46,847 nucleotides of DNA from a virus (IMGVR_UViG_2923318301_000001:1-46847); one strand, 5' to 3'; shown: positions 23,356 through 45,914, counted from the first letter of the stretch. A program made the numbers and translations. Notes: a model not told the origin generated them from the sequence alone.

Positions 23356-23401
23356 CCGCAGTACACCGACGACCAGTCCGAAGAATAATTCCTGGTTCAG
23401 G

Positions 23402-25360: not shown

Positions 25361-25383
25361 ACGTCGCAGACAACAACTCTGAT

Positions 25384-25403
25384 GGCCCGTAAGGGCTTTT
25401 TTT
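25384..25403 (+). terminator. Weak putative terminator after capsid gene
   Basis: 4-bp stem gccc / gggc, loop gtaa, then T7; a second 7-bp hairpin at 25415..25433 has no T-tract. Confidence 0.35.
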
Positions 25404-25446
25404 GTACCTGAAATCAGCCCCTGAACGGGGCTGTGCGGAGACAGTT

Positions 25447-25770
25447 ATGGCAAAGAATTTTGTAGAAGAAGGAAAAACGGTGGCGATTGTTGCCAGTGCA
25501 GCCATCAGCAGCGGAGATCTGGTGCAGGTGGGCGATGTTTTTGCGGTGGCGCTGACCGATATTCCACAGGGTGAAACAGGCGACGGCATGACCGAAGGTG
25601 TGTTTATGCTGCCTAAGCTGAAAACGGATGACATGAAAACGGGTAAGAAGGTTTATCTGAAGTCCGGAAAAGTTCAGCTGACTAACAGCGGCTCTGATCC
25701 GCTGGTCGGGGTTGTCTGGGCAGATGCCGGAACCAGTGCAGAAGAAGTGCCGGTAAAACTCAATGTCTGA
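25447..25770 (+). CDS. Head decoration / DUF2190-like protein
   Basis: 107 aa from ATG at 25447; position directly after the capsid gene; family recalled, not verified. Confidence 0.5.
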   Translation: MAKNFVEEGKTVAIVASAAISSGDLVQVGDVFAVALTDIPQGETGDGMTEGVFMLPKLKTDDMKTGKKVYLKSGKVQLTNSGSDPLVGVVWADAGTSAEEVPVKLNV

Positions 25771-26038
25771 TCCCTTTTCCCGGCTGGCAGCGCGTATGGA
25801 TGCTATCACGGTTAGAAAGATGGGAAAGACAGCCTCGATTAATGATGTCGATATGACTGTGATCCCGGGAGAAACACTGGCAGAGCTGAATGCTCTGTCC
25901 GGACCTGCGGTCTCTCTGGTGGTGTTTTCTTCGGGATACCGCCCACGGCGCGGGGATCGCGTTGTTTATGACGGACAACAATGGACGGTCACACGGCATG
26001 AACGTTTTAACGGTAAGCCAATGATCTTTATTGAGTAA
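25763..26038 (+). CDS. Head-tail joining protein (FII position)
   Basis: 91 aa; position between head genes and the Z-like gene. Confidence 0.5.
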   Translation: MSDPFSRLAARMDAITVRKMGKTASINDVDMTVIPGETLAELNALSGPAVSLVVFSSGYRPRRGDRVVYDGQQWTVTRHERFNGKPMIFIE

Positions 26039-26049
26039 AGAGGTGTGGG

Positions 26050-26628
26050 ATGAAGGGGCTTGAGAATGCCATCCGTAATCTGAACAGCCTTGATACCCGT
26101 ATGGTGCCACAGGCCAGCGCATGGGCGATAAACCGTGTGGCACAGAAAGCGGTCTCGGTCGCCACCCGGCAGGTTGCCGGGAATACCGTTGCGGGAGATA
26201 ACCAGGTGAAAGGGATCCCCCTGAAACTGGTACGTCAGCGTGTCCGGGTGTTTAAAGCCAGTCCGTCAGGAAAAATGACGGCCAGGATCCGCGTTAACCG
26301 GGGCAATCTGCCCGCTATTAAGCTGGGGACAGCCCGGGTCAGACTGGCCCGGCGTGGTGGAAAACTGCAGTACCGTGGCAGTGTGCTGAAGGTGGGTAAA
26401 TATCTTTTCCGGGATGCGTTTATTCAGCAACTGGCGAATGGTCGCTGGCATGTGATGCGGCGTATTGATGGCAAAAATCGTTACCCCATTGATGTGGTGA
26501 AAATCCCGCTGTCCGGACCGCTGACACAGGCATTTGAAGATGCCCGCGACCGCATCATTGCTGCGGAAATGCCGAAACAGCTGGGGTATGCACTGAAACA
26601 ACAACTGAGGTTATGGCTGACCCGATGA
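26050..26628 (+). CDS. Z: Tail completion protein, lambda Z-like
   Basis: 192 aa, same length and position as lambda Z. Confidence 0.65.
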   Translation: MKGLENAIRNLNSLDTRMVPQASAWAINRVAQKAVSVATRQVAGNTVAGDNQVKGIPLKLVRQRVRVFKASPSGKMTARIRVNRGNLPAIKLGTARVRLARRGGKLQYRGSVLKVGKYLFRDAFIQQLANGRWHVMRRIDGKNRYPIDVVKIPLSGPLTQAFEDARDRIIAAEMPKQLGYALKQQLRLWLTR

Positions 26629-27026
26629 ACCGACATACACAAATCCGCCAGGCCGTACTGGCACGCCTTCGGGAACAGTGTGGAGACAGCGCCACGTTTT
26701 TTGACGGGCTTCCGGCATTTGTTGATGCGCAGGAACTGCCTGCCGTGGCGGTGTGGCTGAGTGATGCTCAGTACACCGGAAAAATGACGGATGAAGATGA
26801 CTGGCAGGCTGTTCTGCATATTGCTGTCTTCATCCGGGCACAGGCACCGGATTCAGAGCTGGATATGTGGATGGAGAGCACCATTTTCCCGGCCCTGAAT
26901 GATGTACCGGCACTTTCCGGACTCATCGACACCCTGATCCCACTCGGTTTTAACTATCAACGTGATAATGAGATGGCCACCTGGGCGATGGCGGAAATCA
27001 CGTACCAGATCACGTACACGAATTAA
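26613..27026 (+). CDS. U: Tail terminator protein, lambda U-like
   Basis: 137 aa; shares ATFFDG, PAVAVWL, DSELDMWMES, ITYQITY-type blocks with lambda U. Confidence 0.8.
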   Translation: MADPMNRHTQIRQAVLARLREQCGDSATFFDGLPAFVDAQELPAVAVWLSDAQYTGKMTDEDDWQAVLHIAVFIRAQAPDSELDMWMESTIFPALNDVPALSGLIDTLIPLGFNYQRDNEMATWAMAEITYQITYTN

Positions 27027-27036
27027 GGAGGTGGCA

Positions 27037-27780
27037 ATGACCACACCAAATCCACTGGCAAAAACGAAAGGTGCGGGAACGACGTTCTGGATGTACACCG
27101 GCAAGGGCGATGCGTTTGCGAACCCTTTATCGGACACTGACTGGCTGCGTCTTGCGATGGTGAAGGATCTGCAACCTGGCGAAATGACCGCTGATGCAGA
27201 AGATGACACTTATCTCGATGATGAAGATGCAGACTGGAAAACGACAACCCAGGGGCAGAAATCCGTCGGTGATACTTCGGCGACGCTGGCCTGGCGTCCG
27301 GGTGACAGCGGGCAGAAAAAACTGGTTCAGTTGTTCGACTCCGGTGAAGTCTGCGCGTTTCGTATCAAATATCCCAACGGTACTGTTGATGTTTTCCGTG
27401 GCTGGCTGAGTTCACTGGGTAAAACCATTGCCTCAAAAGACGTGATGACCCGCACCGTGAAAATCAGCGGTGTGGGGCGTCCATATCTGGCAGAGGAGGG
27501 CACTGAAACTGTGGGCGTTACCGGGCTGACGGTGGCACCGGCATCCGCCAGTGTCAATGTGGGAGCAACCACCACGCTGACCTTTACAGTAAAACCTGAC
27601 GGAGCCAGTGACAAAGCGATCAGTGTGCATTCGACAGATCCACAGACTGCCACTGTGACCCTGAACGGACTTGTGGCCACGGTGAAAGGCGTGAAGCAGG
27701 GCAGTGTCAGCATTGTGGGCATGACTTCTGACGGCGATTTTGTGGCAGTGGCTACGGTGGCTGTCAGCGCCGCAGGTTAA
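27037..27780 (+). CDS. V: Major tail protein V (with C-terminal Ig-like domain)
   Basis: 247 aa from ATG at 27037 (AAGGAGG ribosome-binding site); KGAGTTFWMYTG, FRGWLSS blocks match lambda V; track start at 26962 rejected. Confidence 0.9.
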   Translation: MTTPNPLAKTKGAGTTFWMYTGKGDAFANPLSDTDWLRLAMVKDLQPGEMTADAEDDTYLDDEDADWKTTTQGQKSVGDTSATLAWRPGDSGQKKLVQLFDSGEVCAFRIKYPNGTVDVFRGWLSSLGKTIASKDVMTRTVKISGVGRPYLAEEGTETVGVTGLTVAPASASVNVGATTTLTFTVKPDGASDKAISVHSTDPQTATVTLNGLVATVKGVKQGSVSIVGMTSDGDFVAVATVAVSAAG

Positions 27781-27800
27781 CAGGATGATACTCATCATTT

Positions 27801-27826
27801 GCCCCGGTTATTCGGGGCTTTTTTGC
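27801..27826 (+). terminator. Intrinsic terminator/attenuator after the major tail gene
   Basis: Stem gccccg / cggggc, loop gttatt, then TTTTTT. Confidence 0.6.
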
Positions 27827-27837
27827 AGGTGGAGAAT

Positions 27838-28227
27838 ATGATGTTTCTGAAACAGGGCACGTTTAATTATGAAAAACAGTCCGTGGTGCTCAGTGAGCTG
27901 TCCGGGCTGCAGAGAATTGAATATCTGGCGTTTGTTCAGCAGCGAACGGCAAAGTTTGATGCCGGGGAGGGAGAACTGCCGGAGGCTGAACGACAGATTG
28001 CTTTTCTGCGGATGGGGATGGATATCAATGCCTGGCTGGTTTCCCGCTCACTGTGGAATGCGGATCAGTCTAAGGATGTAGAGACGCTTTGCGCATCCGT
28101 TATTACAACATGGTCGTATGATGCCCTGGGTGCGGGGGCGGAGATGGTTCTGTCGCTGAGCGGTATGGGGGCCATTGATAATGCCGGGGATGATGAGCAT
28201 GAGGCGCTGACGCCGGAAAAGTCCTGA
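27838..28227 (+). CDS. G: Tail assembly chaperone G
   Basis: 129 aa from ATG at 27838; lambda G-like (SELSGLQRIEYLA); ends just after a putative slippery site. Confidence 0.8.
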   Translation: MMFLKQGTFNYEKQSVVLSELSGLQRIEYLAFVQQRTAKFDAGEGELPEAERQIAFLRMGMDINAWLVSRSLWNADQSKDVETLCASVITTWSYDALGAGAEMVLSLSGMGAIDNAGDDEHEALTPEKS

Positions 28228-28565
28228 CGCGGGAAATGCAGTTTGTCATGCGGCTTGCCCGGGAGTTCCGGCGGGCAGACTGGCGGCGGATGCTGTCGGA
28301 AATGTCGGCCACTGAGCTTGGTGAGTGGGGCGATTATTTCCGGATGCAGAGCTTCAGTGATGTGTGGATGGATGCGCAGTTTGCCTCGCTGAAGGCATTG
28401 ATCGTGAGAATGGTGTCCGGCAGCAGTGATGCTGCGGTGGCTGATTTCAGCCTTTTACCGGAAGAGAACGGGATACCGGAGCGAACGGACGAAGAACTGA
28501 TGCATCTTGGAGAAGGTATTTCCGGAGGTGTGCGTTATGGACCAGATAGCCAACCTGGTCATTGA
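28215..28565 (+). CDS. T: T segment of the G-T tail chaperone, expressed by -1 frameshift from G
   Basis: Open -1 frame from 28203 to 28565 with no own ribosome-binding site; heptamer GGAAAAG at 28215..28221 one base different from lambda GGGAAAG. Confidence 0.65.
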   Translation, partial: GKVLTREMQFVMRLAREFRRADWRRMLSEMSATELGEWGDYFRMQSFSDVWMDAQFASLKALIVRMVSGSSDAAVADFSLLPEENGIPERTDEELMHLGEGISGGVRYGPDSQPGH

Positions 28566-31500
28566 TTTGGGGATTGATGCGGCAGAGTTTAAAAATGAAA
28601 TTCCCCGTATCAAAAACCTTCTGAATGGTGCCGCCAGCGATGCAGAACGGTCTTCTGCCCGTATGCAGCGTTTTATGGAGCGTCAGACTCAGGCCGCCCG
28701 GCAGACAACGCAGGCGGCTTCTTCGGCTGCAACAGCCGCCTCCGTCCATGCGCAGACGGTGGAGAAGAACGCACAGGCTCATGAACGCATGGCTCGCGAG
28801 GTGGAGAAAACCCGCCAGCGCATGGAGGCGCTGAGCCAGAAAATGCGCGATGAACAGGCGCAGGCCATGGCTCTGGCGGAGGCTCAGGATAAAGCGGCTG
28901 CTGCGTTTTATCGTCAGATTGACAGTGTGAAACAGGCCAGTGCGGGGCTGCAGGAATTACAGCGTATTCAGCAGCAGATCCGACAGGCCAGACACAGTGG
29001 CGGGATTGGTCAGCAGGATTATCTGGCGCTGATTTCTGAGGTTACGGCGAAAACCCGTGTTCTTACACAGGCTGAGGAAGAGGCTACCCGACAGAAAGTG
29101 GCGTTTATCCGTCAGCTTAAAGAGCAGGCAACCCGCCAGAATCTTTCTTCTTCTGAGTTGCTTCGTGCTAAGGCTGCCCAGCTGGGGGTAAGCAGTGCTG
29201 CAGAAGTGTATATCCGCAAAATGGAGCAGGCAGGAAAAGCCACGCATTCGCTGGGTCTGAAAAGTGCAGCGGCCCGCCAGGAGATAGGCGTTCTGATAGG
29301 TGAACTGGCTCGCGGCAATTTAGGTGCGCTGAGGGGATCCGGGATAACGCTGGCTAACCGTGCCGGATGGATAGACACACTGATGTCACCGAAAGGCATG
29401 ATGCTGGGCGGGGTTATTGGCGGTATTGCCGCGGCCGTCTATGGTCTGGGTAAAGCCTGGTATGACGGTCAGAAGGAGGGGGAAGAATTTAACCGCCAGT
29501 TGTCGCTGACGGGGCATTATGCCGGAGTCACTGCCGGGCAGCTGTGGACGCTTAGTCGTGCTATTTCCGGGAATGGTATCACGCAACATGCTGCAGCCGG
29601 TGCGCTGGCTCAGGTGGTGGGGAGTGGTGCATTTCGTGGAAACGATATCGGTATGGTGGCGAGAGCTGCCGCACAGATGGAGCGATCGGTTGGCCAGTCG
29701 GTCAGCGATACCATAAATCAGTTTAAGCGGCTGAAGGATGATCCTGTAAATGCCGCGAAGGCTCTGGACAATGAGCTGCATTTTCTTACTGCCACTCAGC
29801 TTGAGCAGATACGTGTCCTTGGGGATCAGGGACGGTCCAGTGATGCTGCACGGATAGCCATGTCTGCACTGGCAGAGGAAACCGGTCGGCGTACTGCGGA
29901 TATTGATAATAACCTCAATGCGCTTGGCAGTACGCTGAAGTATCTGTCTGATTTGTGGAGTCGTTTCTGGGATGCGGCCATGAATATTGGTCGTGAAGAC
30001 TCGCTGGATGAACAGATTGCCGCTTTACAGGAGAAAGTGTCGCGGGCGAAAAGACTCCCCTGGACGGCATCATCTTCTCAGGTTGAATACGATCAGCAGC
30101 GTCTTAACGATCTTCAGGAGAAAAAACGCCAGAAGGATTTGCAGGATGCAAAAGAGCAGGCAGAGCGGAATTATCAGGAGCAACAGAAACGACGTAATGC
30201 TGAAAATGCTGCACTGAACCGGATGAATGAAACGGAAGCAGCACGACATCAGCGTGAAATTGCGCGTATTAATGCCATGCAGTACGCCGACCAGGCTGTC
30301 AGGGATGCGGCGATACAACGTGAAAATGAACGTTACGAGAAAGCCCTGGCATCCGGTAAGAAAAAAACACGCGAAACCCGTAATGATGAGGCCACCCGGT
30401 TATTGCTGCAGTACAGTCAGCAACAGGCACAGGTGGAAGGGCAGATTGCTGCTGCAAGACAGTCAGCAGGCATTGCCACTGAAAAGATGACAGAAGCGCA
30501 TAAACAGCTTCTGGCTCTGCAGCAGCGCATCAGCGACCTGGACGGGAAAAAACTGACGGCAGATGAAAAGAGTGTGCTGGCCCGTAAAGATGAACTGATT
30601 CAGGCACTGACGCTGCTGGATGTAAAACAGCAGGAGCTTCAGAAACAGACGGCACTCAACGAGCTGAAGAAAAAAACAATTCAGCTGACCAGTCAACTGG
30701 CTGAAGAAGAGCGCGCTCAGCGTCAGCAACATGACCTGGATATCGCCACGGTGGGTATGGGTGATCAGCAGAGGCAGCGATATCAGGTACAACTGAGTCT
30801 TCGCCAGAAATACCAGCAACAGCTGGAGCAGTTGAGGCGGGATAGTGAGCAGAAAGGGACATATAACACGGATGACTACAGAAAGGCCGAGCAGGCGCTG
30901 ACGGAGAGCCTGAACCGACAACTGAATGAGAATCGCCGTTATTGGCAACAGCTTGAAATTGCTCAGGGTAACTGGAAAAACGGTGCTATGCGGGCGTTTC
31001 AGAATTTCACGGCAGATGCGGATAATGCGGCAGGCACTGCTGAGCAGATGCTTACAGCGGCATTTAACAGTGCAGGTAATGCACTGGCAACGTTCTGTAC
31101 TACCGGAAAACTGAACTTCAAATCTTTTACCGCCTCGCTCCTTTCTGATCTGGCAAAAATCATGGCTCAGATGTCCATGATGCAGGCAGTTAAGGGGATT
31201 GGTTCGGCGTTTGGCTGGGGGAGTGCAGCAACTGCCAGTGTGACGCCCAATGCTGATGGTGGTGTTTATCAGTCTGCTGATTTGAGTCGCTACAGTGGCA
31301 CGGTGGTTAACCGTCCGACGTTTTTTGCTTTTGCAAAAGGTGCAGGTGTGATGGGGGAAGCTGGGCCTGAAGCCATTCTGCCTCTGCGTCGTGGTGCTGA
31401 CGGTAAGCTGGGGGTTGTGGCGGATATTGGTGGTTCAGGTATGGCGATGTTTGCCCCGCAGTACAACATCGAGATCAATAACGATGGCACGAACGGGCAG

Positions 31501-31611
31501 ATAGGTCCGGCTGCCCTGAAGGTGGTTTATGACCTCGGGAAAAAAGCAGCAGCGGACTTTATGCAACAGCAGTCCCGTGATGGTGGTCTGTTCTCCGGAG
31601 GTGGACGATGA
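28537..31611 (+). CDS. H: Tail tape measure protein (lambda H-like)
   Basis: 1024 aa from ATG at 28537 (GGAGG ribosome-binding site); long coiled-coil Q/A/E/R-rich body, glycine-rich C-terminus. Confidence 0.9.
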   Translation: MDQIANLVIDLGIDAAEFKNEIPRIKNLLNGAASDAERSSARMQRFMERQTQAARQTTQAASSAATAASVHAQTVEKNAQAHERMAREVEKTRQRMEALSQKMRDEQAQAMALAEAQDKAAAAFYRQIDSVKQASAGLQELQRIQQQIRQARHSGGIGQQDYLALISEVTAKTRVLTQAEEEATRQKVAFIRQLKEQATRQNLSSSELLRAKAAQLGVSSAAEVYIRKMEQAGKATHSLGLKSAAARQEIGVLIGELARGNLGALRGSGITLANRAGWIDTLMSPKGMMLGGVIGGIAAAVYGLGKAWYDGQKEGEEFNRQLSLTGHYAGVTAGQLWTLSRAISGNGITQHAAAGALAQVVGSGAFRGNDIGMVARAAAQMERSVGQSVSDTINQFKRLKDDPVNAAKALDNELHFLTATQLEQIRVLGDQGRSSDAARIAMSALAEETGRRTADIDNNLNALGSTLKYLSDLWSRFWDAAMNIGREDSLDEQIAALQEKVSRAKRLPWTASSSQVEYDQQRLNDLQEKKRQKDLQDAKEQAERNYQEQQKRRNAENAALNRMNETEAARHQREIARINAMQYADQAVRDAAIQRENERYEKALASGKKKTRETRNDEATRLLLQYSQQQAQVEGQIAAARQSAGIATEKMTEAHKQLLALQQRISDLDGKKLTADEKSVLARKDELIQALTLLDVKQQELQKQTALNELKKKTIQLTSQLAEEERAQRQQHDLDIATVGMGDQQRQRYQVQLSLRQKYQQQLEQLRRDSEQKGTYNTDDYRKAEQALTESLNRQLNENRRYWQQLEIAQGNWKNGAMRAFQNFTADADNAAGTAEQMLTAAFNSAGNALATFCTTGKLNFKSFTASLLSDLAKIMAQMSMMQAVKGIGSAFGWGSAATASVTPNADGGVYQSADLSRYSGTVVNRPTFFAFAKGAGVMGEAGPEAILPLRRGADGKLGVVADIGGSGMAMFAPQYNIEINNDGTNGQIGPAALKVVYDLGKKAAADFMQQQSRDGGLFSGGGR

Positions 31612-31937
31612 AAACCTTCCGCTGGAAAGTGAAACCCGGTATGGATGTGGCTTCGGCCCCTTCTGTAAGAAAGGTGCGCTTTGGTGATGGCTATTCCCAG
31701 CGAGCGCCTGCCGGGCTGAATGCCAACCTGAAAACGTACAGCGTGACGCTTTCTGTCCCCCGTGAGGAGGCCACGGTACTGGAGTCGTTTCTGGAAGAGC
31801 ACGGGGGCTGGAAAGCCTTTCTGTGGACGCCGCCTTATGAGTGGCGGCAGATAAAGGTGACCTGCGCAAAATGGTCGTCGCGGGTCAGTATGCTGCGTGT
31901 TGAGTTCAGCGCAGAGTTTGAACAGGTGGTGAACTGA
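31608..31937 (+). CDS. M: Minor tail protein M
   Basis: 109 aa; lambda M-like; ATGA overlap with H. Confidence 0.85.
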   Translation: MKTFRWKVKPGMDVASAPSVRKVRFGDGYSQRAPAGLNANLKTYSVTLSVPREEATVLESFLEEHGGWKAFLWTPPYEWRQIKVTCAKWSSRVSMLRVEFSAEFEQVVN

Positions 31938-32635
31938 TGCAGGATATCCGGCAGGAAACACTGAATGAATGCACCCGTGCGGAGCAGTCGGCCAGCGTGG
32001 TGCTCTGGGAAATCGACCTGACAGAGGTCGGTGGAGAACGTTATTTTTTCTGTAATGAGCAGAACGAAAAAGGTGAGCCGGTCACCTGGCAGGGGCGACA
32101 GTATCAGCCGTATCCCATTCAGGGGAGTGGGTTTGAACTGAATGGCAAAGGCACCAGTACGCGCCCCACGCTGACGGTTTCTAACCTGTACGGTATGGTC
32201 ACCGGGATGGCGGAAGATCTGCAGAGTCTGGTCGGCGGAACGGTGGTCCGGCGTAAGGTTTACGCCCGTTTTCTGGATGCGGTGAACTTCGTCAACGGAA
32301 ACAGTGACGCCGATCCGGAGCAGGAGGTGATCAGCCGCTGGCGCATCGAGCAGTGCAGCGAACTGAGCGCGGTGAGTGCCTCCTTTGTACTGTCCACGCC
32401 GACGGAAACGGATGGCGCTGTTTTTCCGGGACGTATCATGCTGGCCAACACCTGCACCTGGACCTATCGCGGTGATGAGTGCGGTTATCACGGTCCGGCA
32501 GTCGCGGATGAATATGACCAGCCGACGTCCGATATCACGAAGGATAAATGCAGCAAATGCCTGAGCGGCTGTAAGTTTCGCAATAACGTCGGCAACTTTG
32601 GCGGCTTCCTTTCCATTAACAAACTTTCGCAGTAA
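31937..32635 (+). CDS. L: Minor tail protein L
   Basis: 232 aa; lambda L-like with C-terminal Cys cluster. Confidence 0.85.
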   Translation: MQDIRQETLNECTRAEQSASVVLWEIDLTEVGGERYFFCNEQNEKGEPVTWQGRQYQPYPIQGSGFELNGKGTSTRPTLTVSNLYGMVTGMAEDLQSLVGGTVVRRKVYARFLDAVNFVNGNSDADPEQEVISRWRIEQCSELSAVSASFVLSTPTETDGAVFPGRIMLANTCTWTYRGDECGYHGPAVADEYDQPTSDITKDKCSKCLSGCKFRNNVGNFGGFLSINKLSQ

Positions 32636-32639
32636 TCCC

Positions 32640-33383
32640 ATGACAGAGACAGAATCAGCGATTCTGGCGCACGCCCGGCGATGTGCGCCAGCGGAGTCGT
32701 GCGGCTTCGTGGTGAGAACGCCGGAGGGGGAAAGATATTTTCCCTGCGTGAATATCTCCGGTGAGCCGGAGGAGTATTTCCGGATGTCGCCGGAGGACTG
32801 GCTGCAGGCAGAAATGCAGGGTGAGATTGTGGCGCTGGTCCACAGTCACCCCGGTGGTCTGCCCTGGCTGAGTGAGGCCGATCGGCGGCTGCAGGTGCAG
32901 AGTGATTTGCCGTGGTGGCTGGTCTGCCGGGGGGCGATTTACAAGTTCCGCTGTGTGCCACATCTTACCGGGCGGCGCTTTGAGCACGGGGTGACGGACT
33001 GTTACACGCTGTTCCGGGATGCTTACCATCTGGCGGGGATTGAGATGCCGGATTTTCATCGCGAGGATGACTGGTGGCGTAACGGTCAGAATCTCTATCT
33101 GGATAATCTGGAGGCCACAGGGCTGTATCAGGTGCCGTTGTCAGCGGCGCAGCCGGGCGATGTGCTGCTGTGCTGTTTTGGTTCATCGGTGCCGAATCAT
33201 GCCGCCATTTACTGTGGTGACGGCGAGCTGCTGCACCATATTCCTGAACAACTGAGCAAACGAGAGAGGTATACCGACAAATGGCAGCGACGCACACACT
33301 CCCTCTGGCGTCACCGGGCATGGCACGCATCTGCCTTTACGGGGATTTACAACGATTTGGTCGCCGCATCGACCTTCGTGTGA
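32640..33383 (+). CDS. K: Tail assembly protein K (NlpC/P60-JAB-like)
   Basis: 247 aa from ATG at 32640; HSHPGG motif; lambda K-like. Confidence 0.85.
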   Translation: MTETESAILAHARRCAPAESCGFVVRTPEGERYFPCVNISGEPEEYFRMSPEDWLQAEMQGEIVALVHSHPGGLPWLSEADRRLQVQSDLPWWLVCRGAIYKFRCVPHLTGRRFEHGVTDCYTLFRDAYHLAGIEMPDFHREDDWWRNGQNLYLDNLEATGLYQVPLSAAQPGDVLLCCFGSSVPNHAAIYCGDGELLHHIPEQLSKRERYTDKWQRRTHSLWRHRAWHASAFTGIYNDLVAASTFV

Positions 33384-33922
33384 AAACGGGGGCTGAAGCC
33401 ATCCGGGCGCTGGCCACGCAGCTTCCGGCGTTTCGCCAGAAACTGAATGATGGCTGGTATCAGGTGCGCATTTCCGGGCGTGATGCAGGCGAAAACGAAT
33501 TATCTGCCCGTCTTAATGAGCCGCTGGCAAATGGTGCCGTGATCCACATCGTACCGCGTCTGGCGGGTGCCAAAAGTGGCGGTATTTTTCAGGCAGTGCT
33601 GGGTGCGGCGCTAATTGCTACGGCAATCTGGATGCCGGGGCTTAGTATTGTTGCAAGTAATCTCATGTTCTCTCTTGGGGCAGGTATGGTTTTAGGCGGT
33701 GTTGCGCAGATGCTGGCACCGAAAGCCAAAACGCCTAAAGTGTCAGCCACTGATAACGGTAAGCAAAATACCTATTTTTCCTCATTGGATAACATGGTTG
33801 CCCAGGGCAATGTCCTGCCTGTTCTGTACGGTGAAATGCGCGTGGGGTCACGTGTGGCATCTCAGGAGATCAGCACGGCAGATGAAGGGGATGGTGGTCA
33901 GGTTGTGGTAATTGGGCGGTAA
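33281..33922 (+). CDS. I: Tail assembly protein I
   Basis: 213 aa; N- and C-terminal blocks match lambda I (MAATHTLPLASPGMARICLYGDLQRFGRRIDL ... NVLPVLYGEMRVGSRV); overlaps K as in lambda. Confidence 0.8.
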   Translation: MAATHTLPLASPGMARICLYGDLQRFGRRIDLRVKTGAEAIRALATQLPAFRQKLNDGWYQVRISGRDAGENELSARLNEPLANGAVIHIVPRLAGAKSGGIFQAVLGAALIATAIWMPGLSIVASNLMFSLGAGMVLGGVAQMLAPKAKTPKVSATDNGKQNTYFSSLDNMVAQGNVLPVLYGEMRVGSRVASQEISTADEGDGGQVVVIGR

Positions 33923-33994
33923 TATTATTTACTCATGTTCTAACTGATTTAATATTTATATCGAACACTGATAATTATTCTGTTGGTTAGCTAT

Positions 33995-34333
33995 ATGAAC
34001 AAAACGATTTTATTCTGCACGATTATTGCCTTAACAGGATGTAAATCTTTGGATTACGTAAAATCCGGCAAGCCTGTAATGGAAGGTAATTCATTAAAAA
34101 ATATTGATGAATTGTCAGGCTGCATATCCAGACAATGGGCTGGTAATGGAACACCTATAACATCCATTCCTATTGAGAATGGGGTAAGCCTTTTAGTTCC
34201 ACAGGCTATGGGTGGGTATGATGTTGTGCTTGATATCAAAAAAGCAGGAAATGGCAGTAGTTTTACTCTTTATGAACGCGTACCAGCATTAACGCCAAAA
34301 ATTTTTGCTGATAGTGTTAATGCATGTAAATAA
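33995..34333 (+). CDS. Lipoprotein moron inserted between I and J
   Basis: 112 aa from MNKTILFCTIIALTGC (signal peptide plus lipobox); AT-rich gene with its own upstream AT-rich region and downstream terminator. Confidence 0.65.
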   Translation: MNKTILFCTIIALTGCKSLDYVKSGKPVMEGNSLKNIDELSGCISRQWAGNGTPITSIPIENGVSLLVPQAMGGYDVVLDIKKAGNGSSFTLYERVPALTPKIFADSVNACK

Positions 34334-34357
34334 TAGTTAATCCTGCCGTAACTCATG

Positions 34358-34387
34358 AGCCGCCTTTTGGGCGGCTTTGTTGTTTAT
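34358..34387 (+). terminator. Intrinsic terminator after the lipoprotein moron
   Basis: Stem agccgcc / ggcggct, loop ttttg, then T-rich tttgttgttt. Confidence 0.55.
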
Positions 34388-34399
34388 GGAGTGTGAGGA

Positions 34400-37300
34400 A
34401 TGGGTAAAGGTAGCAGTAAGGGGCATACCCCGCGCGAAGCGAAGGACAACCTGAAGTCCACGCAGCTGCTGAGTGTGATCGATGCCATCAGCGAAGGGCC
34501 GGTTGAAGGTCCGGTGGATGGATTAAAAAGCGTGCTGCTGAACAGTACGCCGGTGCTGGACACTGAGGGGAATACCAACATCTCCGGTGTCACGGTGGTG
34601 TTCCGTGCCGGTGAGCAGGAGCAGACACCGCCGGAGGGGTTTGAATCCTCCGGCTCCGAGACGGTGCTGGGTACGGAAGTGAAATATGACACGCCGATCA
34701 CCCGCACCATTACGTCTGCAAACATCGACCGTCTGCGCTTTACCTTCGGCGTGCAGGCACTGGTGGAAACCACCTCAAAGGGGGACCGGAATCCGTCGGA
34801 AGTCCGCCTGCTGGTTCAGATCCAGCGTAATGGTGGCTGGGTGACGGAAAAAGACATCACCATTAAGGGCAAAACCACCTCGCAGTATCTGGCCTCGGTG
34901 GTGGTGGGTAACCTGCCGCCGCGCCCGTTCAATATACGGATGCGCAGGATGACGCCGGACAGCACCACAGACCAGCTGCAGAACAAAACGCTCTGGTCGT
35001 CATACACCGAAATCATCGATGTGAAACAGTGCTACCCGAACACGGCACTGGTCGGCGTGCAGGTGGATTCGGAGCAGTTCGGCAGCCAGCAGGTGAGCCG
35101 TAATTATCATCTGCGCGGGCGCATTCTGCAGGTGCCGTCGAACTATAACCCGCAGACGCGGCAATACAGCGGTATCTGGGACGGAACGTTTAAGCCAGCA
35201 TACAGCAACAACATGGCCTGGTGTCTGTGGGATATGCTGACCCATCCGCGCTACGGCATGGGGAAACGTCTTGGTGCGGCGGATGTGGACAAATGGGCGC
35301 TGTATGTCATCGGCCAGCATTGCGATCAGTCGGTGCCGGACGGTTTTGGCGGCACAGAGCCGCGCATCACCTGTAATGCGTACCTGACCACACAGCGCAA
35401 GGCGTGGGATGTGCTCAGTGATTTCTGCTCTGCGATGCGCTGTATGCCGGTATGGAACGGGCAGACGCTGACGTTCGTGCAGGACCGACCGTCGGATAAG
35501 GTGTGGACCTATAACCGCAGTAATGTGGTGATGCCGGATGATGGTGCGCCGTTCCGCTACAGCTTCAGCGCCCTGAAGGACCGCCATAATGCCGTTGAGG
35601 TGAACTGGATTGACCCGAATAACGGCTGGGAGACGGCGACAGAGCTTGTGGAGGACACGCAGGCCATTGCCCGTTACGGTCGTAACGTCACGAAGATGGA
35701 TGCTTTTGGCTGTACCAGCCGGGGGCAGGCACACCGCGCCGGGCTGTGGCTGATTAAAACAGAACTGCTGGAAACGCAGACCGTGGACTTCAGCGTGGGT
35801 GCCGAAGGGCTTCGCCATGTACCGGGCGATGTCATTGAAATCTGCGATGATGACTATGCCGGTATCCGCACCGGCGGGCGCGTGCTGGCGGTAAACAGCC
35901 AGACCCGGACGCTGACGCTCGACCGTGAAATCACGCTGCCATCTTCCGGCACCACGCTGATAAGCCTGGTTGACGGGCAGGGGAGTCCGGTCAGCGTGGA
36001 GGTTCAGTCCGTCACCGACGGCGTGAAGGTGAAAGTGAGCCGTGTTCCTGACGGCGTTGCTGAATACAGCGTATGGGGGCTGAAGCTGTCGACGTTGCGC
36101 CAGCGCCTGTTCCGCTGCGTGAGTATCCGTGAGAACGACGACGGCACGTATGCCATCACCGCCGTGCAGCATGTACCGGAAAAAGAGGCCATCGTGGATA
36201 ACGGGGCGCACTTTGACGGCGACCAGAGCGGCACGGTAAATGGTGTCACGCCGCCAGCGGTGCAGCACCTGACCGCAGAAGTCACCGCAGACAGCGGGGA
36301 ATACCAGGTGCTGGCGCGCTGGGACACGCCGAAGGTGGTGAAGGGCGTGAGCTTCCTGCTTCGCCTGACCGTGGCAGCGGATGACGGCCGTGAGCGGCTG
36401 GTCAGCACGGCCCGGACGACGGAAACCACTTACCGCTTCACACAACTGGCTCTGGGGAACTACAGGCTGACAGTCCGGGCAGTAAATGCGTGGGGGCAGC
36501 AGGGCGATCCGGCGTCGGTATCGTTCCGGATTGCCGCACCGGCAGCGCCGTCGCGGATTGAGCTGACGCCGGGCTATTTTCAGATAACCGCCACGCCGCA
36601 TCTTGCGGTTTATGACCCGACGGTACAGTTTGAGTTCTGGTTCTCGGAAAAACGGATTGCGGATATCAGGCAGGTTGAAACCAGCGCGCGTTATCTTGGT
36701 ACGGCACTGTACTGGATAGCCGCCAGTATCAATATCAAACCGGGCCATGATTATTATTTTTACGTTCGCAGTGTGAACACCGTTGGCAAATCGGCATTCG
36801 TGGAGGCTGTCGGTCGGGCGAGCGATGATGCGGAAGGTTACCTGGATTTTTTCAAAGGCAAGATAACCGAATCCCATCTCGGTAAAGAGCTGCTGGAAAA
36901 AGTTGATCTGACGGAGGATAACGCCAGCAGACTGGATGAGTTTTCGAAAGAGTGGAAGGACGCTAACGATAAATGGAATGCCATGTGGGGCGTCAAAATT
37001 GAGCAGACCAAAGACGGCAAACATTATGTCGCGGGTATTGGCCTCAGCATGGAGGACACGGAGGAAGGCAAGCTGAGCCAGTTTCTGGTTGCCGCTAACC
37101 GTATCGCGTTTATTGACCCGGCAAACGGGAATGAAACGCCGATGTTTGTGGCGCAGGGCAACCAGATATTCATGAACGACGTGTTCCTGAAGCGCCTGAC
37201 AGCCCCCACCATTACCAGCGGTGGCAGTCCTCCGGTATTTTCCCTGACATCAGACGGAAAGCTGACCGCTAAAAATGCGGATATCAGTGGTAGTGTGAAT

Positions 37301-37813
37301 GCGAACTCAGGAACGCTCAACAATGTCACGATTAACCAGAACTGTACGATTAAGGGCATGCTGGAGGCGACCCAGGTCAGAGGGGATTTCGTTAAAGCTG
37401 TATCAAAAGCCTTCCCGAAAAAAGTCGGTACGTGGGGTAACACGGAAACACCAAACGGTACGGTTACAGTCACCATCAGCGATGATCATAACTTTGACCG
37501 CCAGATTATTATTCCGCCCATTATTTTTAACGGTATAGCGTATGACGATCCGGGGAGCGGAAATAACCCAGGAGGCACGCGATACACGGGTTATGGTTTT
37601 GAAGTTCGCAAAAACGGCGTATTAATCGCATCCAGAGAAACTAAAGGGGCCATTCCCGGTAGTTACAGTGCAGTTATTGATATGCCGAGTGGCAGGGGAA
37701 GCGTCACTCTGGAGTTTAAGATTTTCCAGAAAGGCAATCAGGGGGCAGGCAATATCACCGACTGTACGGTGATTGTGACCAAAAAAGCCGCTTCCGGCAT
37801 CAGTATTCGTTGA
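34400..37813 (+). CDS. J: Central tail fibre / host specificity protein J
   Basis: 1137 aa; collinear with lambda J in length and recognisable blocks. Confidence 0.95.
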
Positions 37814-37883
37814 AATATTTATAACCCCAATAAAGGGCGTCAGGAATGACGCCTTTTTTATTGCAGAAAAGCGAGAGGTAATT

Positions 37884-38483
37884 ATGCGTAAAGTTTGTGC
37901 AGCAATTTTGTCCGCAGCCATTTGTCTGGCCGTATCCGGTGCGCCTGCATGGGCGTCTGAACATCAGTCCACGCTGAGCGCGGGGTATCTTCATGCCTCG
38001 ACGAACGTCCCCGGCAGTGATGATCTGAACGGGATTAACGTGAAATACCGTTATGAGTTTACGGACACACTGGGGCTGGTGACGTCATTCAGCTATGCAG
38101 GAGACAAGAATCGCCAGCTGACCCGTTACAGCGATACCCGCTGGCATGAAGATTCCGTTCGTAACCGCTGGTTCAGCGTAATGGCGGGGCCGTCTGTGCG
38201 CGTAAATGAATGGTTCAGCGCGTATGCGATGGCGGGTGTAGCTTACAGCCGTGTGTCGACTTTCTCCGGGGATTATCTTCGCGTAACTGACAACAAGGGG
38301 AAAAAGCACGATGTGCTGACCGGAAGTGATGACGGTCGCCACAGCAACACGTCTCTGGCGTGGGGGGCTGGCGTGCAGTTTAACCCGACCGAATCCGTGG
38401 CCATTGATATTACTTATGAAGGCTCCGGCAGTGGTGACTGGCGCACTGACGGTTTCATCGTGGGTGTCGGTTATAAATTCTGA
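37884..38483 (+). CDS. lom: Outer membrane protein Lom (Ail/Lom family)
   Basis: 199 aa; signal peptide, beta-barrel pattern, C-terminal GYKF; lambda Lom-like. Confidence 0.9.
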   Translation: MRKVCAAILSAAICLAVSGAPAWASEHQSTLSAGYLHASTNVPGSDDLNGINVKYRYEFTDTLGLVTSFSYAGDKNRQLTRYSDTRWHEDSVRNRWFSVMAGPSVRVNEWFSAYAMAGVAYSRVSTFSGDYLRVTDNKGKKHDVLTGSDDGRHSNTSLAWGAGVQFNPTESVAIDITYEGSGSGDWRTDGFIVGVGYKF

Positions 38484-38510
38484 TTAGCCAGGTAACACAG
38501 TGTTATGACA

Positions 38511-38536
38511 GCCCGCCGGTTCAGGCGGGCTTTTTT
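38511..38536 (+). terminator. Intrinsic terminator after lom
   Basis: Stem gcccgcc / ggcgggc, loop ggttca, then TTTTTT. Confidence 0.7.
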
Positions 38537-38547
38537 GTGGGGTGAAT

Positions 38548-41500
38548 ATGGCAGTAAAGATTTCAGGTGTACTGAAAGACGGCGCAGGTAAACCGGTACA
38601 GAACTGCACAATCCAGCTGAAAGCAAAACGTAACAGCACCACGGTGGTGGTGAACACGGTGGCCTCAGAAAATCCGGATGAAGCCGGGCGTTACAGCATG
38701 GACGTTGAGTACGGTCAGTACAGCGTTATTCTGTTGGTGGAAGGCTTCCCGCCATCGCATGCCGGGACCATCACCGTGTATGAAGACTCACAACCGGGTA
38801 CGCTGAATGATTTTCTCGGTGCCATGACGGAGGATGATGCCCGTCCGGAGGCACTGCGCCGTTTTGAGCTGATGGTGGAAGAAGTGGCGCGTAACGCGTC
38901 CGCGGTGGCACAGAACACGGCAGAGGCTGCTATTTCTGCCTCTCAGGCCGAAGAGTTCGCGAGCAATGCTTCTGAATATGCGCTGAATAAGTTCACGTTC
39001 TATAAAACGCCGAGCGATCCGGACGGTACAATTGCAGGCCTTGCTGCTACTACCAGCGGGCAGTCTTTCCGTGTAGCGGAAGGCCCGGGAGCAACAGCGG
39101 CATTCAAAACCTACGAGAACCAGGATGGCGTGGCTATACTACAGGCTTCTCAGCCAGGCACAGCTGCTATAACAGGGACAATCCGCGAATTTCCCACGCT
39201 GGAGGCGGCACAGGCTGATGCAGACGCTGGCAATATTCTTTCTGGTTCAAAATGCTGGGTAACCAGTGCTATAAATACCTCGCTGGCTGACGAGTATGTA
39301 AATACATCCGGGGTTATGACTGCAACCGGGAGAACAATTATTTCCCAGTACAGCCTATCTTCGTCTATATCAAGAGAAGCAACTAGAAGAAAAAATGGTG
39401 ATTATCAGGATTTGATTGAATTCAAATCTCTTGATGATACAGCACTACCATTACCGGAAAATTCAGTATTAGAATTTTTGTCTCTGGCAACCACTACGGA
39501 TGTAAACACAAACTTCTATCGCCTTGTTTTTTCTTCGCTGGGTTCTGAGGTTGCGTCACTGGTTTTTCCTGGGACGAACACCCAGTATTCTGATGGTAAA
39601 TTCTGGTCAGCGTATCGCCTGTTCCGATTTCAGGATTTGAAGTATGTTTCCATTCTGGAAACGACCAGTAGTGTAGTTCGGGTTCGCTATGACCTGCCGG
39701 CTGGGTTTGGTGTTCCGGTAGCAGGCTCAAACTATATTGCACTTGATATTACAGGCAAGTTTTATCCGGCGCAGGCAGGCTCAGTTAACTCCGTCACAAG
39801 GAAGTCAATATCCGGGACAGCAATTGCCAACGCCATTCAGTTCGTGGTTACCATCGCTGAACTTACGGCTGCTGGTTATACGGCGTCGACCGTTGTTGAT
39901 TACATCAACTCAATAGCGCCAGATTGCCTCTTTGCGGCATATGCGGCATATGATACGACGATTGCCCAGACAGGGTTTGAAGATTTTTTCAGGATTCAGT
40001 TACCTGCTGGTGATTATACCGTTAGCCGTGATGGCTTTGCGCCTTCAGGACTGGCAGTGTTACCTGCCGGTGCGTATTCGGTATGGCGTAAAAAGCCTGT
40101 AAGGCAGGTATTTGTTGGAAACTTCCTGAGAAATGTTGCTGATGTTAAAAATCTGCTGTCGGCAGAATATAAAAACTATCCCGTTGAGCTTAAGGTGTCG
40201 TTTGGTCCCGGCGAAGTGCCAGACTCCGATGCGCTGAAGGTGATGGACGCTGACGGCAACGTGTTTGACTGCCAGTTTGCGGATAACGTTTATCCCAATC
40301 CACGCCTGAAATCGAACACCGGATACCATGCCGACGGCTCCCTGGCATCAGGGTCTGTGTTCATCACCGATACCCTGGCATCAGGACAGCAGAAATATTA
40401 CGAACTCAGGGCATACAATCGTCGCCGCCAGGACCTGGCCTCAGAGTCCTTCCCGCAGCTCGTGAGGGTGGCTGACGGGTTCACCGTTACCGTGGGCGGG
40501 TATGTGTATTTTTTCCAGCGCCAGAACAGCCTGGGGCTGACCAGTATCACCGACCCGGCAGGACAGACGCACAGTTTTGCGCATTCCTGTTACTGTACCG
40601 GGATTGTCTCCGGCGGATCCTCAAGTAACAAGATGGTGCTCGGTGCATCACTGCGCATGGTTAATACCGGGCCGGTCTTTACTGAGCTGGAGCTGACCGT
40701 CAGAAACCGGACCATCGGAACACTGGCTGAAGGGGCGTTACAGTCCACAGTACGCTACCGGATTTTCAAAAATGGCAAGGTGCTTATCCGGGTCATGACC
40801 ACGGCTACGCAAGATATTCCGGCTGGAGTATTATTTGGTGCATATTCCCGTCTGAACCTGAATGATGGTGCATATACCTTTGATGCCGCTAGAGCACTGA
40901 CGTACTGGACGGATTCAGTCACCGGCAAGCGATTTACGGCCACGACGGTCTTTGCTAATGGGGATATCCACCGAGATGGCCCTGCTTATGGGCCAACGCG
41001 CCCGATACGGGCAACGGCGCTGCAACCCACAGGCACAACAACTCGGCTGGACGCGGGATGGCTTTTCGTTGACCTGAATGACGATTCATTCCTGAACTGG
41101 CCTGTGCCAAAAAACTGGACGTGGACACATGAGACATGGATTGACTGCGACAACACCATCACCAGTTCCACCTCAGAGGTTAATGCACTGCTGGTAAGTC
41201 AGGCTAACAACCGCCCGGTAGGGTTCATGGGTGATTGCAGTTATGCAGGTGTTCTGCGGCTGGACATGCTGGAGAAAATCGCCTGTCACGTCAGGGGATC
41301 CGTTGAGTGGTGGAAAAGCACTGACGCTACTGTTTATGGTGGCGGACCCGATGTGAAAACGCAGTTCTATTGCCACATGGCAGAGATTTTTCTGTTAGAA
41401 AAGTATGGCATCAGCACGCTGAACACAGTGTATACGAATTTTAAATCGTACATGAGGGGATTTGGCGGCATAACTAATCCAGGTATTATGTTCACTGATG

Positions 41501-42282
41501 GATGGTGGGGGTTGCAGTTCCAGTCGCGTCTGAGTATTCCGTGCTATGAGTGGCTCTACAAAATGGCGGTGAAGGCCGGAGATACAGCCAAACAAACCGA
41601 GCTGAAGGCGGGGATTAAATCCCTCGCGGATGCCGTCATGGTGTCATATAACACCTATGGTGGCGTGGCTCTGGTGGGGACAGCCACAAACTCAGGAAAC
41701 AGCAACTCTAACGCGACAGCCATGCGCGTGCTGGCGCTGGCGATTTATATGGGGCTGGATACCGGCGGGACGTACCTTGCTGCATTCAATGCGCTGGAGA
41801 CCTTCATCACGAACTCAGCGACATTCATGAAAGCGGAAAACATTATTCTCGATGGCCCGTCGGATTCCACGCTGAAGAGCATGTACCTGCCGTACATGGT
41901 TTACGCCACTAATAACTACCTGCTGGCCTGCAAGCTGCTTAACCGGACACCAAAGTTTGACCTGGTGAATTTTATCCTGACAGCGTCAAACAGCGCGGGA
42001 GGATTCAGTGAGGTGGATTACTGCATCTCTGAAAGCCGACGTGGTGGCGCGAACACTATCGCGTTTGCGTTACTGCCGCTGTTTCAGTCCGCCAGGCCGT
42101 CAGCAATGATTGCCGCAAAATCGCTGTTCGGAATTTTTGAGACGCAGTACGGGCCGAAACCGGGACTACCAAAGCGCTTCTTTGATTTTGACGGCAGCAG
42201 TGCGGCTGGCAGCACGATGTATGACCCGTGCTTTGTGGCGTCAACGCTTGCCGACCTTTGGCTGTCATATGGCTACAATTAA
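38548..42282 (+). CDS. Side tail fibre / tailspike-like protein with lambda Stf N-terminal anchor and divergent large C-terminal region
   Basis: 1246 aa; first ~120 aa near-identical to my recollection of lambda Stf (MAVKISGVLKDGAGKPVQNCTIQLKAKRNSTTVVVNTV...), remainder unrelated to the Stf repeats. Confidence 0.8.
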   Translation: MAVKISGVLKDGAGKPVQNCTIQLKAKRNSTTVVVNTVASENPDEAGRYSMDVEYGQYSVILLVEGFPPSHAGTITVYEDSQPGTLNDFLGAMTEDDARPEALRRFELMVEEVARNASAVAQNTAEAAISASQAEEFASNASEYALNKFTFYKTPSDPDGTIAGLAATTSGQSFRVAEGPGATAAFKTYENQDGVAILQASQPGTAAITGTIREFPTLEAAQADADAGNILSGSKCWVTSAINTSLADEYVNTSGVMTATGRTIISQYSLSSSISREATRRKNGDYQDLIEFKSLDDTALPLPENSVLEFLSLATTTDVNTNFYRLVFSSLGSEVASLVFPGTNTQYSDGKFWSAYRLFRFQDLKYVSILETTSSVVRVRYDLPAGFGVPVAGSNYIALDITGKFYPAQAGSVNSVTRKSISGTAIANAIQFVVTIAELTAAGYTASTVVDYINSIAPDCLFAAYAAYDTTIAQTGFEDFFRIQLPAGDYTVSRDGFAPSGLAVLPAGAYSVWRKKPVRQVFVGNFLRNVADVKNLLSAEYKNYPVELKVSFGPGEVPDSDALKVMDADGNVFDCQFADNVYPNPRLKSNTGYHADGSLASGSVFITDTLASGQQKYYELRAYNRRRQDLASESFPQLVRVADGFTVTVGGYVYFFQRQNSLGLTSITDPAGQTHSFAHSCYCTGIVSGGSSSNKMVLGASLRMVNTGPVFTELELTVRNRTIGTLAEGALQSTVRYRIFKNGKVLIRVMTTATQDIPAGVLFGAYSRLNLNDGAYTFDAARALTYWTDSVTGKRFTATTVFANGDIHRDGPAYGPTRPIRATALQPTGTTTRLDAGWLFVDLNDDSFLNWPVPKNWTWTHETWIDCDNTITSSTSEVNALLVSQANNRPVGFMGDCSYAGVLRLDMLEKIACHVRGSVEWWKSTDATVYGGGPDVKTQFYCHMAEIFLLEKYGISTLNTVYTNFKSYMRGFGGITNPGIMFTDGWWGLQFQSRLSIPCYEWLYKMAVKAGDTAKQTELKAGIKSLADAVMVSYNTYGGVALVGTATNSGNSNSNATAMRVLALAIYMGLDTGGTYLAAFNALETFITNSATFMKAENIILDGPSDSTLKSMYLPYMVYATNNYLLACKLLNRTPKFDLVNFILTASNSAGGFSEVDYCISESRRGGANTIAFALLPLFQSARPSAMIAAKSLFGIFETQYGPKPGLPKRFFDFDGSSAAGSTMYDPCFVASTLADLWLSYGYN

Positions 42283-42296
42283 TGGAAAATAGAAAT

Positions 42297-42324
42297 CAAA
42301 AGGCCTAAATAATACGGCCTTTTG
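42297..42324. terminator. Hairpin after the Stf-like gene (possible terminator)
   Basis: 9-bp stem caaaaggcc / ggccttttg with 10-nt loop; A-tract before and T-tract within/after. Confidence 0.4.
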
Positions 42325-42779
42325 ATTTGCGGGGGTATATATGGCGCTTAAGCTATTAGCCAATAATAACGCAAAGAGTGTTCTCGCTGCGGGTATTAGC
42401 GCGTCCGCTACCGTTATTACCGTGGGTACCGGAGCGGGGGCTTTATTCCCTTCCCCTGTATCTGGACAGAGCTATTTCAAATTAACGATAACCGACGCGG
42501 CCACGAAAACAATATCTGAAATTATGCACGTCACGTCTGTATCCGGTGACGTGATGACAGTAATTCGTGGTCAGGAAGGAACTACGGCACGCGTATGGTC
42601 AACGAATGACATTGTCGCGAATTTAATGACCGCCGGATCATTGTTATCTTTCCTGCAGATCAGCAATAACCTGTCAGAAATTAAAGATGCCGGTGAGGAT
42701 GCGATAAATGAAGCCCGTTATAACCTCGGAATATCTGATTCCTCTGGTTTTGTCGGGCGTTCACTTGGCGCTCCAAAAG

Positions 42780-42788
42780 CTTTCTATG
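42780..42788. repeat. IS903 target-site duplication (left copy)
   Basis: ctttctatg, identical to 43846..43854. Confidence 0.85.
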
Positions 42789-43845: not shown

Positions 43846-43854
43846 CTTTCTATG
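43846..43854. repeat. IS903 target-site duplication (right copy)
   Basis: ctttctatg, identical to 42780..42788. Confidence 0.85.
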
Positions 43855-45839: not shown

Positions 45840-45914
45840 AATGCGGCATGAGTATACCCGCTAATGGACTGCGGGGTAAGTACGCTGCCGCTCGATTGCT
45901 TAAACCCTCGCCAT

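Follow-up and report, generated by a model that had tools for sequence, protein, structure and literature searches.

A small gene between the tail genes I and J of a lambda-like prophage raises two questions. Is it a part of the tail module or an accessory insertion, and, if it was inserted, does its product, a putative lipoprotein, mask the receptor recognized by the J protein of the same phage? An earlier note on this DNA had taken the gene for an insertion and had proposed receptor masking as a candidate role.

The stretch of DNA analysed (IMGVR_UViG_2923318301_000001, 46,847 nucleotides, hereafter the window) matched E. coli SCEC020023 (NZ_CP025950.3, 1512502-1559348) collinearly and without gaps at 99.985% identity. 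It is a complete lambda-like prophage of the KplE1/CPS-53 type, adjoining tRNA-Arg, intS and yfdC. Over its whole length (1..46847) it corresponds to the cryptic prophage KplE1/CPS-53 of K-12 in a complete, lambda-like form, located at argW. The torI gene (~4656..4856, minus strand) lies near the left end together with yfdT, yfdR, yfdQ and yfdP, and intS (44443..45603) and tRNA-Arg (45765..45839), both on the minus strand, are at the right end. The tail genes are arranged in the order H-M-L-K-I, the small ORF, and J-lom-stf. The tail assembly gene I (33281..33922) and the tail tip / host-specificity gene J (34400..37813), both on the plus strand, form the left and right flanks of the insertion.

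Several other features of the prophage were observed. The element to the left of torI (1..4403) contains a gene for a rolling-circle replication-associated protein (1..1053, minus strand), small DNA-binding genes and its own tyrosine integrase gene (3117..4403, minus strand); this could be a satellite or an integrative element placed in tandem with the prophage. Another lipoprotein gene of the moron type, iss of the Bor family (18050..18343, minus strand), lies on the opposite strand just past the lysis cassette. Between the Q antiterminator and holin genes, a gene for an "SDH family Clp fold serine proteinase" (15304..16299, minus strand) is likely to be another accessory gene, also on the opposite strand. 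The side tail fibre ORF is intact in the window (1246 aa, 38542..42282), where RefSeq gives only a 445-bp N-terminal pseudogene, and an IS903B transposase gene (42821..43789) is found 3' of this ORF among small genes before intS.

The inserted cassette and the junction hairpin

The GC content was 0.315-0.41 across 33900..34399, against 0.52-0.65 on the I side and 0.57-0.61 on the J side; that of the lipoprotein coding sequence was 0.37, against 0.56-0.58 in the flanks. Genes I and J are separated by 477 bp in the window, compared with ~60 bp in lambda and ~60 bp in the "empty" junction of a prophage from IMG/VR (locus L048) that is otherwise nearly the same and the J N-terminal region of which is 98% identical to that of the window. 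In the alignment to these empty junctions, homology ended right after the stop codon of I and restarted at ~34353. The inserted DNA therefore extends over ~33923..34352, a low-GC cassette of ~430 bp on the plus strand that stands in place of ~20-25 nt of the ~60-nt spacer between I and J. Gene I differs from its lambda counterpart synonymously in the last four codons and also in the stop codon, which suggests that the left recombination point lies inside the end of I. Morons, a term used here in the sense of Juhala and Hendrix, are recognized by criteria following PMC3594210: additional DNA separating genes that adjoin each other in related phages, a base composition unlike that of the neighbouring genes, a promoter and a terminator of their own, and expression from the repressed prophage. 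The cassette shows the first two, and the AT-rich insertion described in the earlier note is confirmed. We conclude that a moron-type accessory cassette has entered the I-J junction of an argW-integrated lambda-like prophage by recombination.

Two short repeats were found around the insert. A perfect 10-nt inverted repeat, TATTATTTAC / GTAAATAATA, at 33923..33932 and 34326..34335 encloses the region that starts at the first base past the end of gene I and runs to where the lipoprotein gene stops, and an 8-nt direct repeat, TTGGGCGG, at 33912..33919 and 34367..34374 lies on both sides of the whole insert. Both are short enough to occur by chance, and a transposition mechanism was not adopted because repeats of 8 and 10 nt are too short to serve as an argument. 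A scan of 33700..34600 against Rfam gave sub-threshold chance matches only.

The cassette begins with an AT-rich leader of 72 nt (33923..33994, plus strand) without a strong Shine-Dalgarno sequence. No sigma-70-like promoter on the plus strand of this leader reached the scan threshold. The best candidate found by eye is weak, with TTTACT (33928..33933) and TAATAT (33950..33955) separated by a 16-nt spacer and matching at 8 of 12 positions.

After the lipoprotein gene there is a terminator-like hairpin with a T-rich tail (34357..34387, plus strand; GAGCCGCC-TTT-GGGCGGCTT). The hairpin proper (34357..34377) has a 9-bp stem with six GC pairs and a predicted energy of -22.1 kcal/mol (z -2.7). The earlier note had assigned this structure (34358..34387) to the cassette as its own terminator. 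The hairpin is real, but the insert ends at ~34352, and a homologous hairpin is present in the empty I-J junctions of lambda (CCGCC-TGC-GGGCGG-TTTT) and L048, where the sequence at the same place reads AACCGCC-TGC-GGGCGGTTTTGTCATTTATGGAG. Since this homologous hairpin already exists in empty junctions, the hairpin appears to be a junction element of the tail-operon backbone, with the cargo placed upstream of it, and not a private terminator of the cassette. Putative terminators at the I-J junction were also annotated by the depositors of N15, phiKO2 and HK97. An almost identical unit, the hairpin plus TTTATGGGG, lies 5' of gene I in HK97 and 3' of the lipoprotein gene in loci L084 and L070, and every copy of the lipoprotein gene in an enterobacterial tail context is followed by a hairpin and a T run.

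It is worth noting that a recurrent unit, nearly identical from place to place and composed of a GC-rich hairpin, a T run and TTTATGG(A/G)G, was seen at tail-gene junctions of lambda-, HK97- and N15-like phages. Its last part supplies the ribosome-binding site of the next gene. The unit is located at 34357..34399 in the window, at 2470..2505 in lambda (L078) and at 6800..6830 in HK97 (L085), and it also occurs 3' of the lipoprotein gene in L084 and L002. It marks the K-I junction in HK97 and the I-J junction in lambda, with cargo genes just upstream. The unit may mark recombination slots for morons.

The lipoprotein and its family

The coding sequence (33995..34333, plus strand, ATG start) specifies a prolipoprotein of 112 aa, with a predicted mature protein of 97 aa, that belongs to the PHROG 914 / phiKO2 Gp19 family; RefSeq annotates the same coding sequence as "hypothetical protein" (WP_153274582.1). 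The signal peptide and the lipobox LTGC are encoded by 33995..34042 (plus strand), in which the codon of Cys16, the predicted lipidation site, occupies 34040..34042. As read from the sequence, the N-terminus consists of MNK with one positive charge, the uncharged stretch TILFCTIIA and the lipobox with Cys16. A charged n-region, an uncharged h-region and a lipobox of the form [LVI][ASTVI][GAS]C are thus all found within the first ~35 residues, as expected of a lipoprotein. In E. coli, Asp at position +2 keeps a lipoprotein in the inner membrane. Since the +2 residue here is Lys rather than Asp, the sorting rule predicts an outer-membrane location; Asp was found at +2 in none of the listed family members.

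The protein gave a full-length match to the profile phrog_914, which is annotated as "unknown function" (E 5.7e-33, residues 1-112 on profile positions 1-118 of 118). An exhaustive profile search yielded 116 family clusters at 50% identity, almost all of 105-125 aa and nearly all with the lipobox retained, and all 35 sampled family members matched phrog_914. When 35 diverse members were aligned, C16, C43 and C111 proved invariant, and P27, K35, W48 and G63 almost invariant. Among 33 close copies, 11 variable sites are synonymous and 6 non-synonymous, an excess that indicates purifying selection on the gene. The profile match, the conserved length, lipobox and cysteines, and the synonymous excess together argue that the ORF is not a product of chance, and the 112-aa lipoprotein ORF with the lipobox LTGC, as the earlier note had read it, stands.

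The AlphaFold2 model (pLDDT 84, pTM 0.76) shows a strand-helix-four-strand-helix domain that is structured from residue 19, three residues past the lipid-bearing Cys. Cys43 is located in helix 1 and Cys111 in the C-terminal helix of this model; we infer that the two may form a disulfide bond. P27, K35, W48, G63 and a Y-E-R motif are kept from the enterobacterial to far more distant members, and this conservation suggests a conserved partner, which is not necessarily related to phages.

Comparisons with known proteins gave little beyond the family itself. Scans of the protein and 35 relatives against Pfam, NCBIfam and PADLOC returned nothing meaningful, a search of PDB sequences with a profile picked up signal peptides only, and the structural matches were to generic folds at 6-13% identity. 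Of the known folds compared, Flpp3 (DUF3568), an outer-membrane lipoprotein of Francisella, and the N-terminal domain of BamC show 6-10% identity and no sequence-level relationship to the protein. This fold is generic and tells nothing about a partner. In the literature, no paper on the function of the lipoprotein or of PHROG 914 was found. Separately, the family profile matched one protein of 1047 aa without a lipobox (P0030) at five distinct places (E 2e-10), which could reflect either repeats of the family domain or a compositional artefact.

Distribution and junction slots

The cassette was found in 336 of 5426 complete E. coli genomes (~6%), at 348 places and always with at least 95% identity, and on one plasmid. 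The isolates that carry it came from human, animal and food sources. The I/J flanks were found in 4296 genomes at 8687 places. Since only ~4% of the I-J junctions are occupied, the lipoprotein gene is accessory and lies outside the tail module. The earlier note had called the gene moron-like, and had named presence of the ORF in all relatives as a sign that it was a tail-module gene after all; comparison of the I-J junctions showed that the ORF is not present in all of them. In 58 IMG/VR loci, a copy of 98-100% identity was located between I and J wherever the contig included the flanks.

The phage records gave a different picture. Although the flanking I and J sequences recur in hundreds of lambdoid and Stx phages, a megablast search found the cassette in none of the 50,697 deposited phage genomes. 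Either the carriers are rarely induced or isolated, or the absence is a sampling effect. With tblastn, the phage records yielded distant homologues only, in Fraca and LMessi, and from those, homologues in phiKO2 and Serratia phage OS31.

Relatives of the lipoprotein are also found at other junctions. Those with 30-58% identity lie at the K-I junction in Fraca, LMessi, phiKO2 (Gp19), the loci L069, L070, L083 and L084, and a Kluyvera genome. The Kluyvera locus, with the order K-lipoprotein-I, was the only one found when genome contigs were scanned with the alignment of close copies. A relative in L061 is also at the K-I junction, inside a 4-kb accessory cluster; defence genes were sought in this cluster by guilt by association, and only Arc-like, Bro-N/KilA-N and HTH regulators were found. 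Other relatives, in L062 and L065-L067, lie between the G/T chaperone genes and the tape-measure gene, the slot of HK97 gene 15. Outside tail operons, relatives of ~25% identity form an opposite-strand pair in a prophage replication module and also occur in a small capsid/terminase/primase element and in an integrase-bearing island. In the enterobacterial tail contexts the GC content of the lipoprotein gene is 0.37-0.46, against 0.52-0.58 in the flanks, and in the K-I contexts the upstream gap is only ~36-40 nt. From the positions of its members, the lipoprotein family hops among junctions of siphophage tail operons and other mobile elements.

The best-annotated relative is phiKO2 Gp19 (YP_006599.1), whose depositors called it a "putative moron gene product". 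It belongs to PHROG 914, has ~111 aa and a GC content lower than that of its flanks, and its gene lies at a tail-tip gene junction with a hairpin after it. In contrast to the gene in the window, it occupies the K-I rather than the I-J junction. It was found through the Fraca homologue, which is 48.6% identical to Gp19, and not through the window protein itself.

The I-J junction is a known cargo slot, since unrelated genes have also been inserted there: HK97 carries its annotated morons, genes 22 and 23, at this junction, and mEp021 an HNH gene. HK97 gene 15, between G/T and the tape-measure gene, and genes 22/23 resemble the cassette in being extra genes between tail genes that are adjacent in relatives, each before a junction terminator. 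Gene 22 shares the I-J slot with the cassette, and some relatives of the lipoprotein occupy the slot of gene 15. The products are different: gp15, of 62 aa, resides in the inner membrane, and gp22 lacks a lipobox. A homology of the lipoprotein to gp15 or gp22 was rejected, as no alignment at all was obtained.

Two further observations concern these slots. In L048, a lambdoid prophage copy of greater divergence has its genes I and J ~340 bp apart (12233..12575) with no convincing ORF in the gap, and evidently the junction also holds other or decayed inserts. In the ~290-bp K-I gap of HK97 (L085), an unannotated ORF of 32 codons (6562..6660) encodes the hydrophobic peptide MYTVGFGWIFVGIFIGLILWFFINRASVRANR and precedes the annotated terminator. 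It may be a micro-moron.

Receptor matching and possible functions

If the lipoprotein masked the receptor of its own phage, it would be expected to co-vary with the receptor-binding domain of J. The C-terminal receptor-binding region of the window's J (37034..37810, plus strand) is of the phage 434 type: the last 259 aa are 98% identical to J of phage 434 and 97.7% identical to that of lambda h434, and 434 J confers OmpC specificity (PMC11101478). We compared the J types in 36 IMG/VR loci having a complete J beside a lipoprotein gene of at least 98% identity. Six of the J C-termini were of the 434 type, 24 were VT1-Sakai/PPompW-like (53-61% identical to the 434 type) and three were 2H10-like, while two belonged to an unrelated J of 1084 aa and one could not be placed. 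The lipoprotein, at least 98% identical throughout, is thus found with at least four J C-terminal types that are mutually 53-65% identical or unrelated. The tape-measure protein H is also of two types beside the lipoprotein, 97-100% or ~25% identical.

The reverse comparison gave the same result. In 66 phage records the J end is at least 90% identical to that of the window, and none of the 66 has the cassette; phage 434, lambda h434, mEp460 and Stx phages with a 434-type J end are all without the lipoprotein gene. At 90% identity or more, only the immediate neighbours I, N-terminal J, K, L and M are linked with the gene, and physical proximity alone explains this linkage. The linkage to J is therefore no evidence of receptor matching, and the lipoprotein gene does not co-vary with the receptor-binding domain. 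Since the same lipoprotein accompanies at least four J types and is missing from phages with a 434-type J, we regard masking of the J-cognate receptor as disfavoured. Of the interpretation in the earlier note, the accessory lipoprotein cassette stands and the masking directed against J-cognate phages does not; superinfection exclusion of another kind is possible.

We tentatively favour, at a probability of roughly 0.35, an envelope-level exclusion or lysogenic-conversion factor that is not aimed at the receptor of the carrier's J. The prolipoprotein would be lipidated at Cys16 and sorted by the Lol system to the inner leaflet of the outer membrane, where it would present a compact alpha/beta domain of ~95 aa, with almost no tether, directly under the membrane. 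Tail assembly does not depend on it, and purifying selection maintains it as cargo. By precedent, we would guess that it acts as a lysogenic-conversion factor at the periplasmic face of the outer membrane and interferes with incoming phages. Its target would then be an outer-membrane component other than J's own receptor or a post-adsorption step common to siphophage tails, and its action would not be matched to the J receptor-binding domain of the carrier phage.

This envelope-level exclusion is consistent with the insertion and its composition, the patchy presence (336 of 5426 genomes), the conserved lipobox, Lys at +2 and the Cys pair, the signs of selection and mobility, and the coexistence of one lipoprotein with at least four J and two H types. 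There is also precedent, as tail-operon morons and phage lipoproteins have repeatedly turned out to be exclusion factors: HK97 gp15, which is expressed from the prophage and excludes without blocking the receptor, and Cor (PMC3594210), and Lpp021/Lpp010 of mEpimmI phages, experimentally shown to exclude OmpA- and LamB-dependent phages (PMC11893012). On the other side, neither homology nor experiment ties PHROG 914 to a function, and the fold match is generic. Without a promoter above threshold, and with the short gaps in the K-I contexts, transcription may come mainly from the late operon, which would fit prophage defence less well. In addition, the partner suggested by the conserved residues need not concern phages.

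This last point leads to a host-fitness or virulence factor unrelated to phages, for example one acting against serum or complement, envelope stress, or colicins and antimicrobial peptides in the manner of Bor/Iss or TraT. Besides the residues kept across very distant members, the occurrence of some members in non-tail mobile elements and of the cassette in human, animal and food isolates would fit such a role, and the nearest solved fold, Flpp3, was deposited in the PDB as a virulence determinant of Francisella tularensis. Lambda Bor/Iss, a serum-resistance lipoprotein of the outer membrane encoded by a prophage moron, is a natural comparison. Its gene is located beside the lysis cassette and not in the tail operon, and homology was rejected because hhalign aligned only the signal peptide. 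The prophage in the window already has iss, and the striking recurrence of enterobacterial relatives at tail-tip junctions, together with the membership of all 35 sampled proteins in a phage protein family, also speaks against a role apart from phages. We regard the fitness factor as possible, though it is not our preferred reading.

Masking of the receptor of the carrier's own J, here OmpC, would exclude phages of the same specificity and spare progeny from debris, as Cor and Llp do at FhuA. The attraction of the idea lies in the position of an outer-membrane lipoprotein gene next to the host-specificity gene. Cor (N15 gp24, also in phi80, HK022 and mEp167) and T5 Llp are small phage lipoproteins that are encoded near tail or receptor-binding genes and act on an outer-membrane protein. 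They accompany FhuA-specific phages. Cor (~77 aa) and Llp (an 83-residue chain in 8a60) are, however, shorter than the lipoprotein here, and the cor gene lies 3' of J in N15 and Fraca, whereas the gene in the window lies 5' of a J of the 434/OmpC type. Fraca has both, a homologue of the lipoprotein gene at its K-I junction and, as a separate gene following J, cor.

Lpp021 and Lpp010 are likewise encoded inside the structural gene cluster of temperate coliphages and act against OmpA- or LamB-dependent phages. They differ from the present protein in length (72 and 82 aa), in being encoded on the opposite strand 3' of J, and in matching the receptor class (OmpA or LamB) of their own phage. Homology to these masking proteins was sought and rejected in each case. 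For the Cor family (phrog_1119), hhalign with Fraca Cor was restricted to the signal peptide and linker, and the window protein has no phrog_1119 match. In the comparison with T5 Llp (PDB 8a60_B) only the signal peptide aligns, and Llp was not among the structural or sequence matches of the lipoprotein beyond that. For Lpp021/Lpp010, BLASTP gave no alignment and hhalign the signal peptide only. With the J types and the 66 same-J-end phage records also against it, masking of the carrier's own receptor is unlikely.

We consider it similarly improbable that the lipoprotein is a late lytic helper, read through from the Q-antiterminated tail operon, that changes the envelope before lysis or reduces the loss of progeny. 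The orientation of the gene with the tail operon, the want of a convincing promoter of its own and the very short upstream gaps in the K-I contexts would all be expected of such a helper. The gene is, however, missing from ~96% of I-J junctions and from every isolated lambdoid phage of the collection, and so the lipoprotein cannot be important for growth; a receptor block protecting progeny, moreover, should co-vary with J, which the lipoprotein does not.

Selfish or decaying cargo with no current function has very little probability. Frameshifted or truncated copies do exist (P0002, P0004, P0007, P0012, P0013 and L058-L060), and identities of at least 95% among all E. coli copies fit a recent spread, but the synonymous excess, the length, lipobox and Cys pair kept down to ~25% identity over 116 clusters, and the confident fold argue against decay. 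Inhibition of the NlpC/P60 peptidase K, conceived by analogy with T4 Spackle and from the frequent adjacency to K, was set aside as unsupported.

A bolder form of the favoured envelope-level exclusion is that PHROG 914 represents a new and widespread class of prophage exclusion proteins, which would lie almost untethered beneath the outer membrane and block a receptor-independent post-adsorption step of siphophage infection, either tail-tip penetration or the ejection of DNA through outer membrane and periplasm. Such a block would explain why the gene travels with the tail-tip genes K, I and N-terminal J while the receptor-binding end of J varies independently of it. We hold this to be a doubtful proposition.

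Tail-operon morons, phage lipoproteins, PHROG 914 and phiKO2 Gp19 as a putative moron product were already known, and tail-operon morons are a well-known source of lysogenic-conversion and exclusion genes. PHROG 914 is broad, with 116 sequence clusters across many bacteria. If the lipoprotein is a host-fitness factor, it would be another cargo gene spread by lambdoid prophages. If it is an exclusion factor, it would represent a class of lipoproteins untied to the receptor of the carrier, which would be relevant to the prediction of phage susceptibility and to phage therapy in E. coli and Klebsiella.
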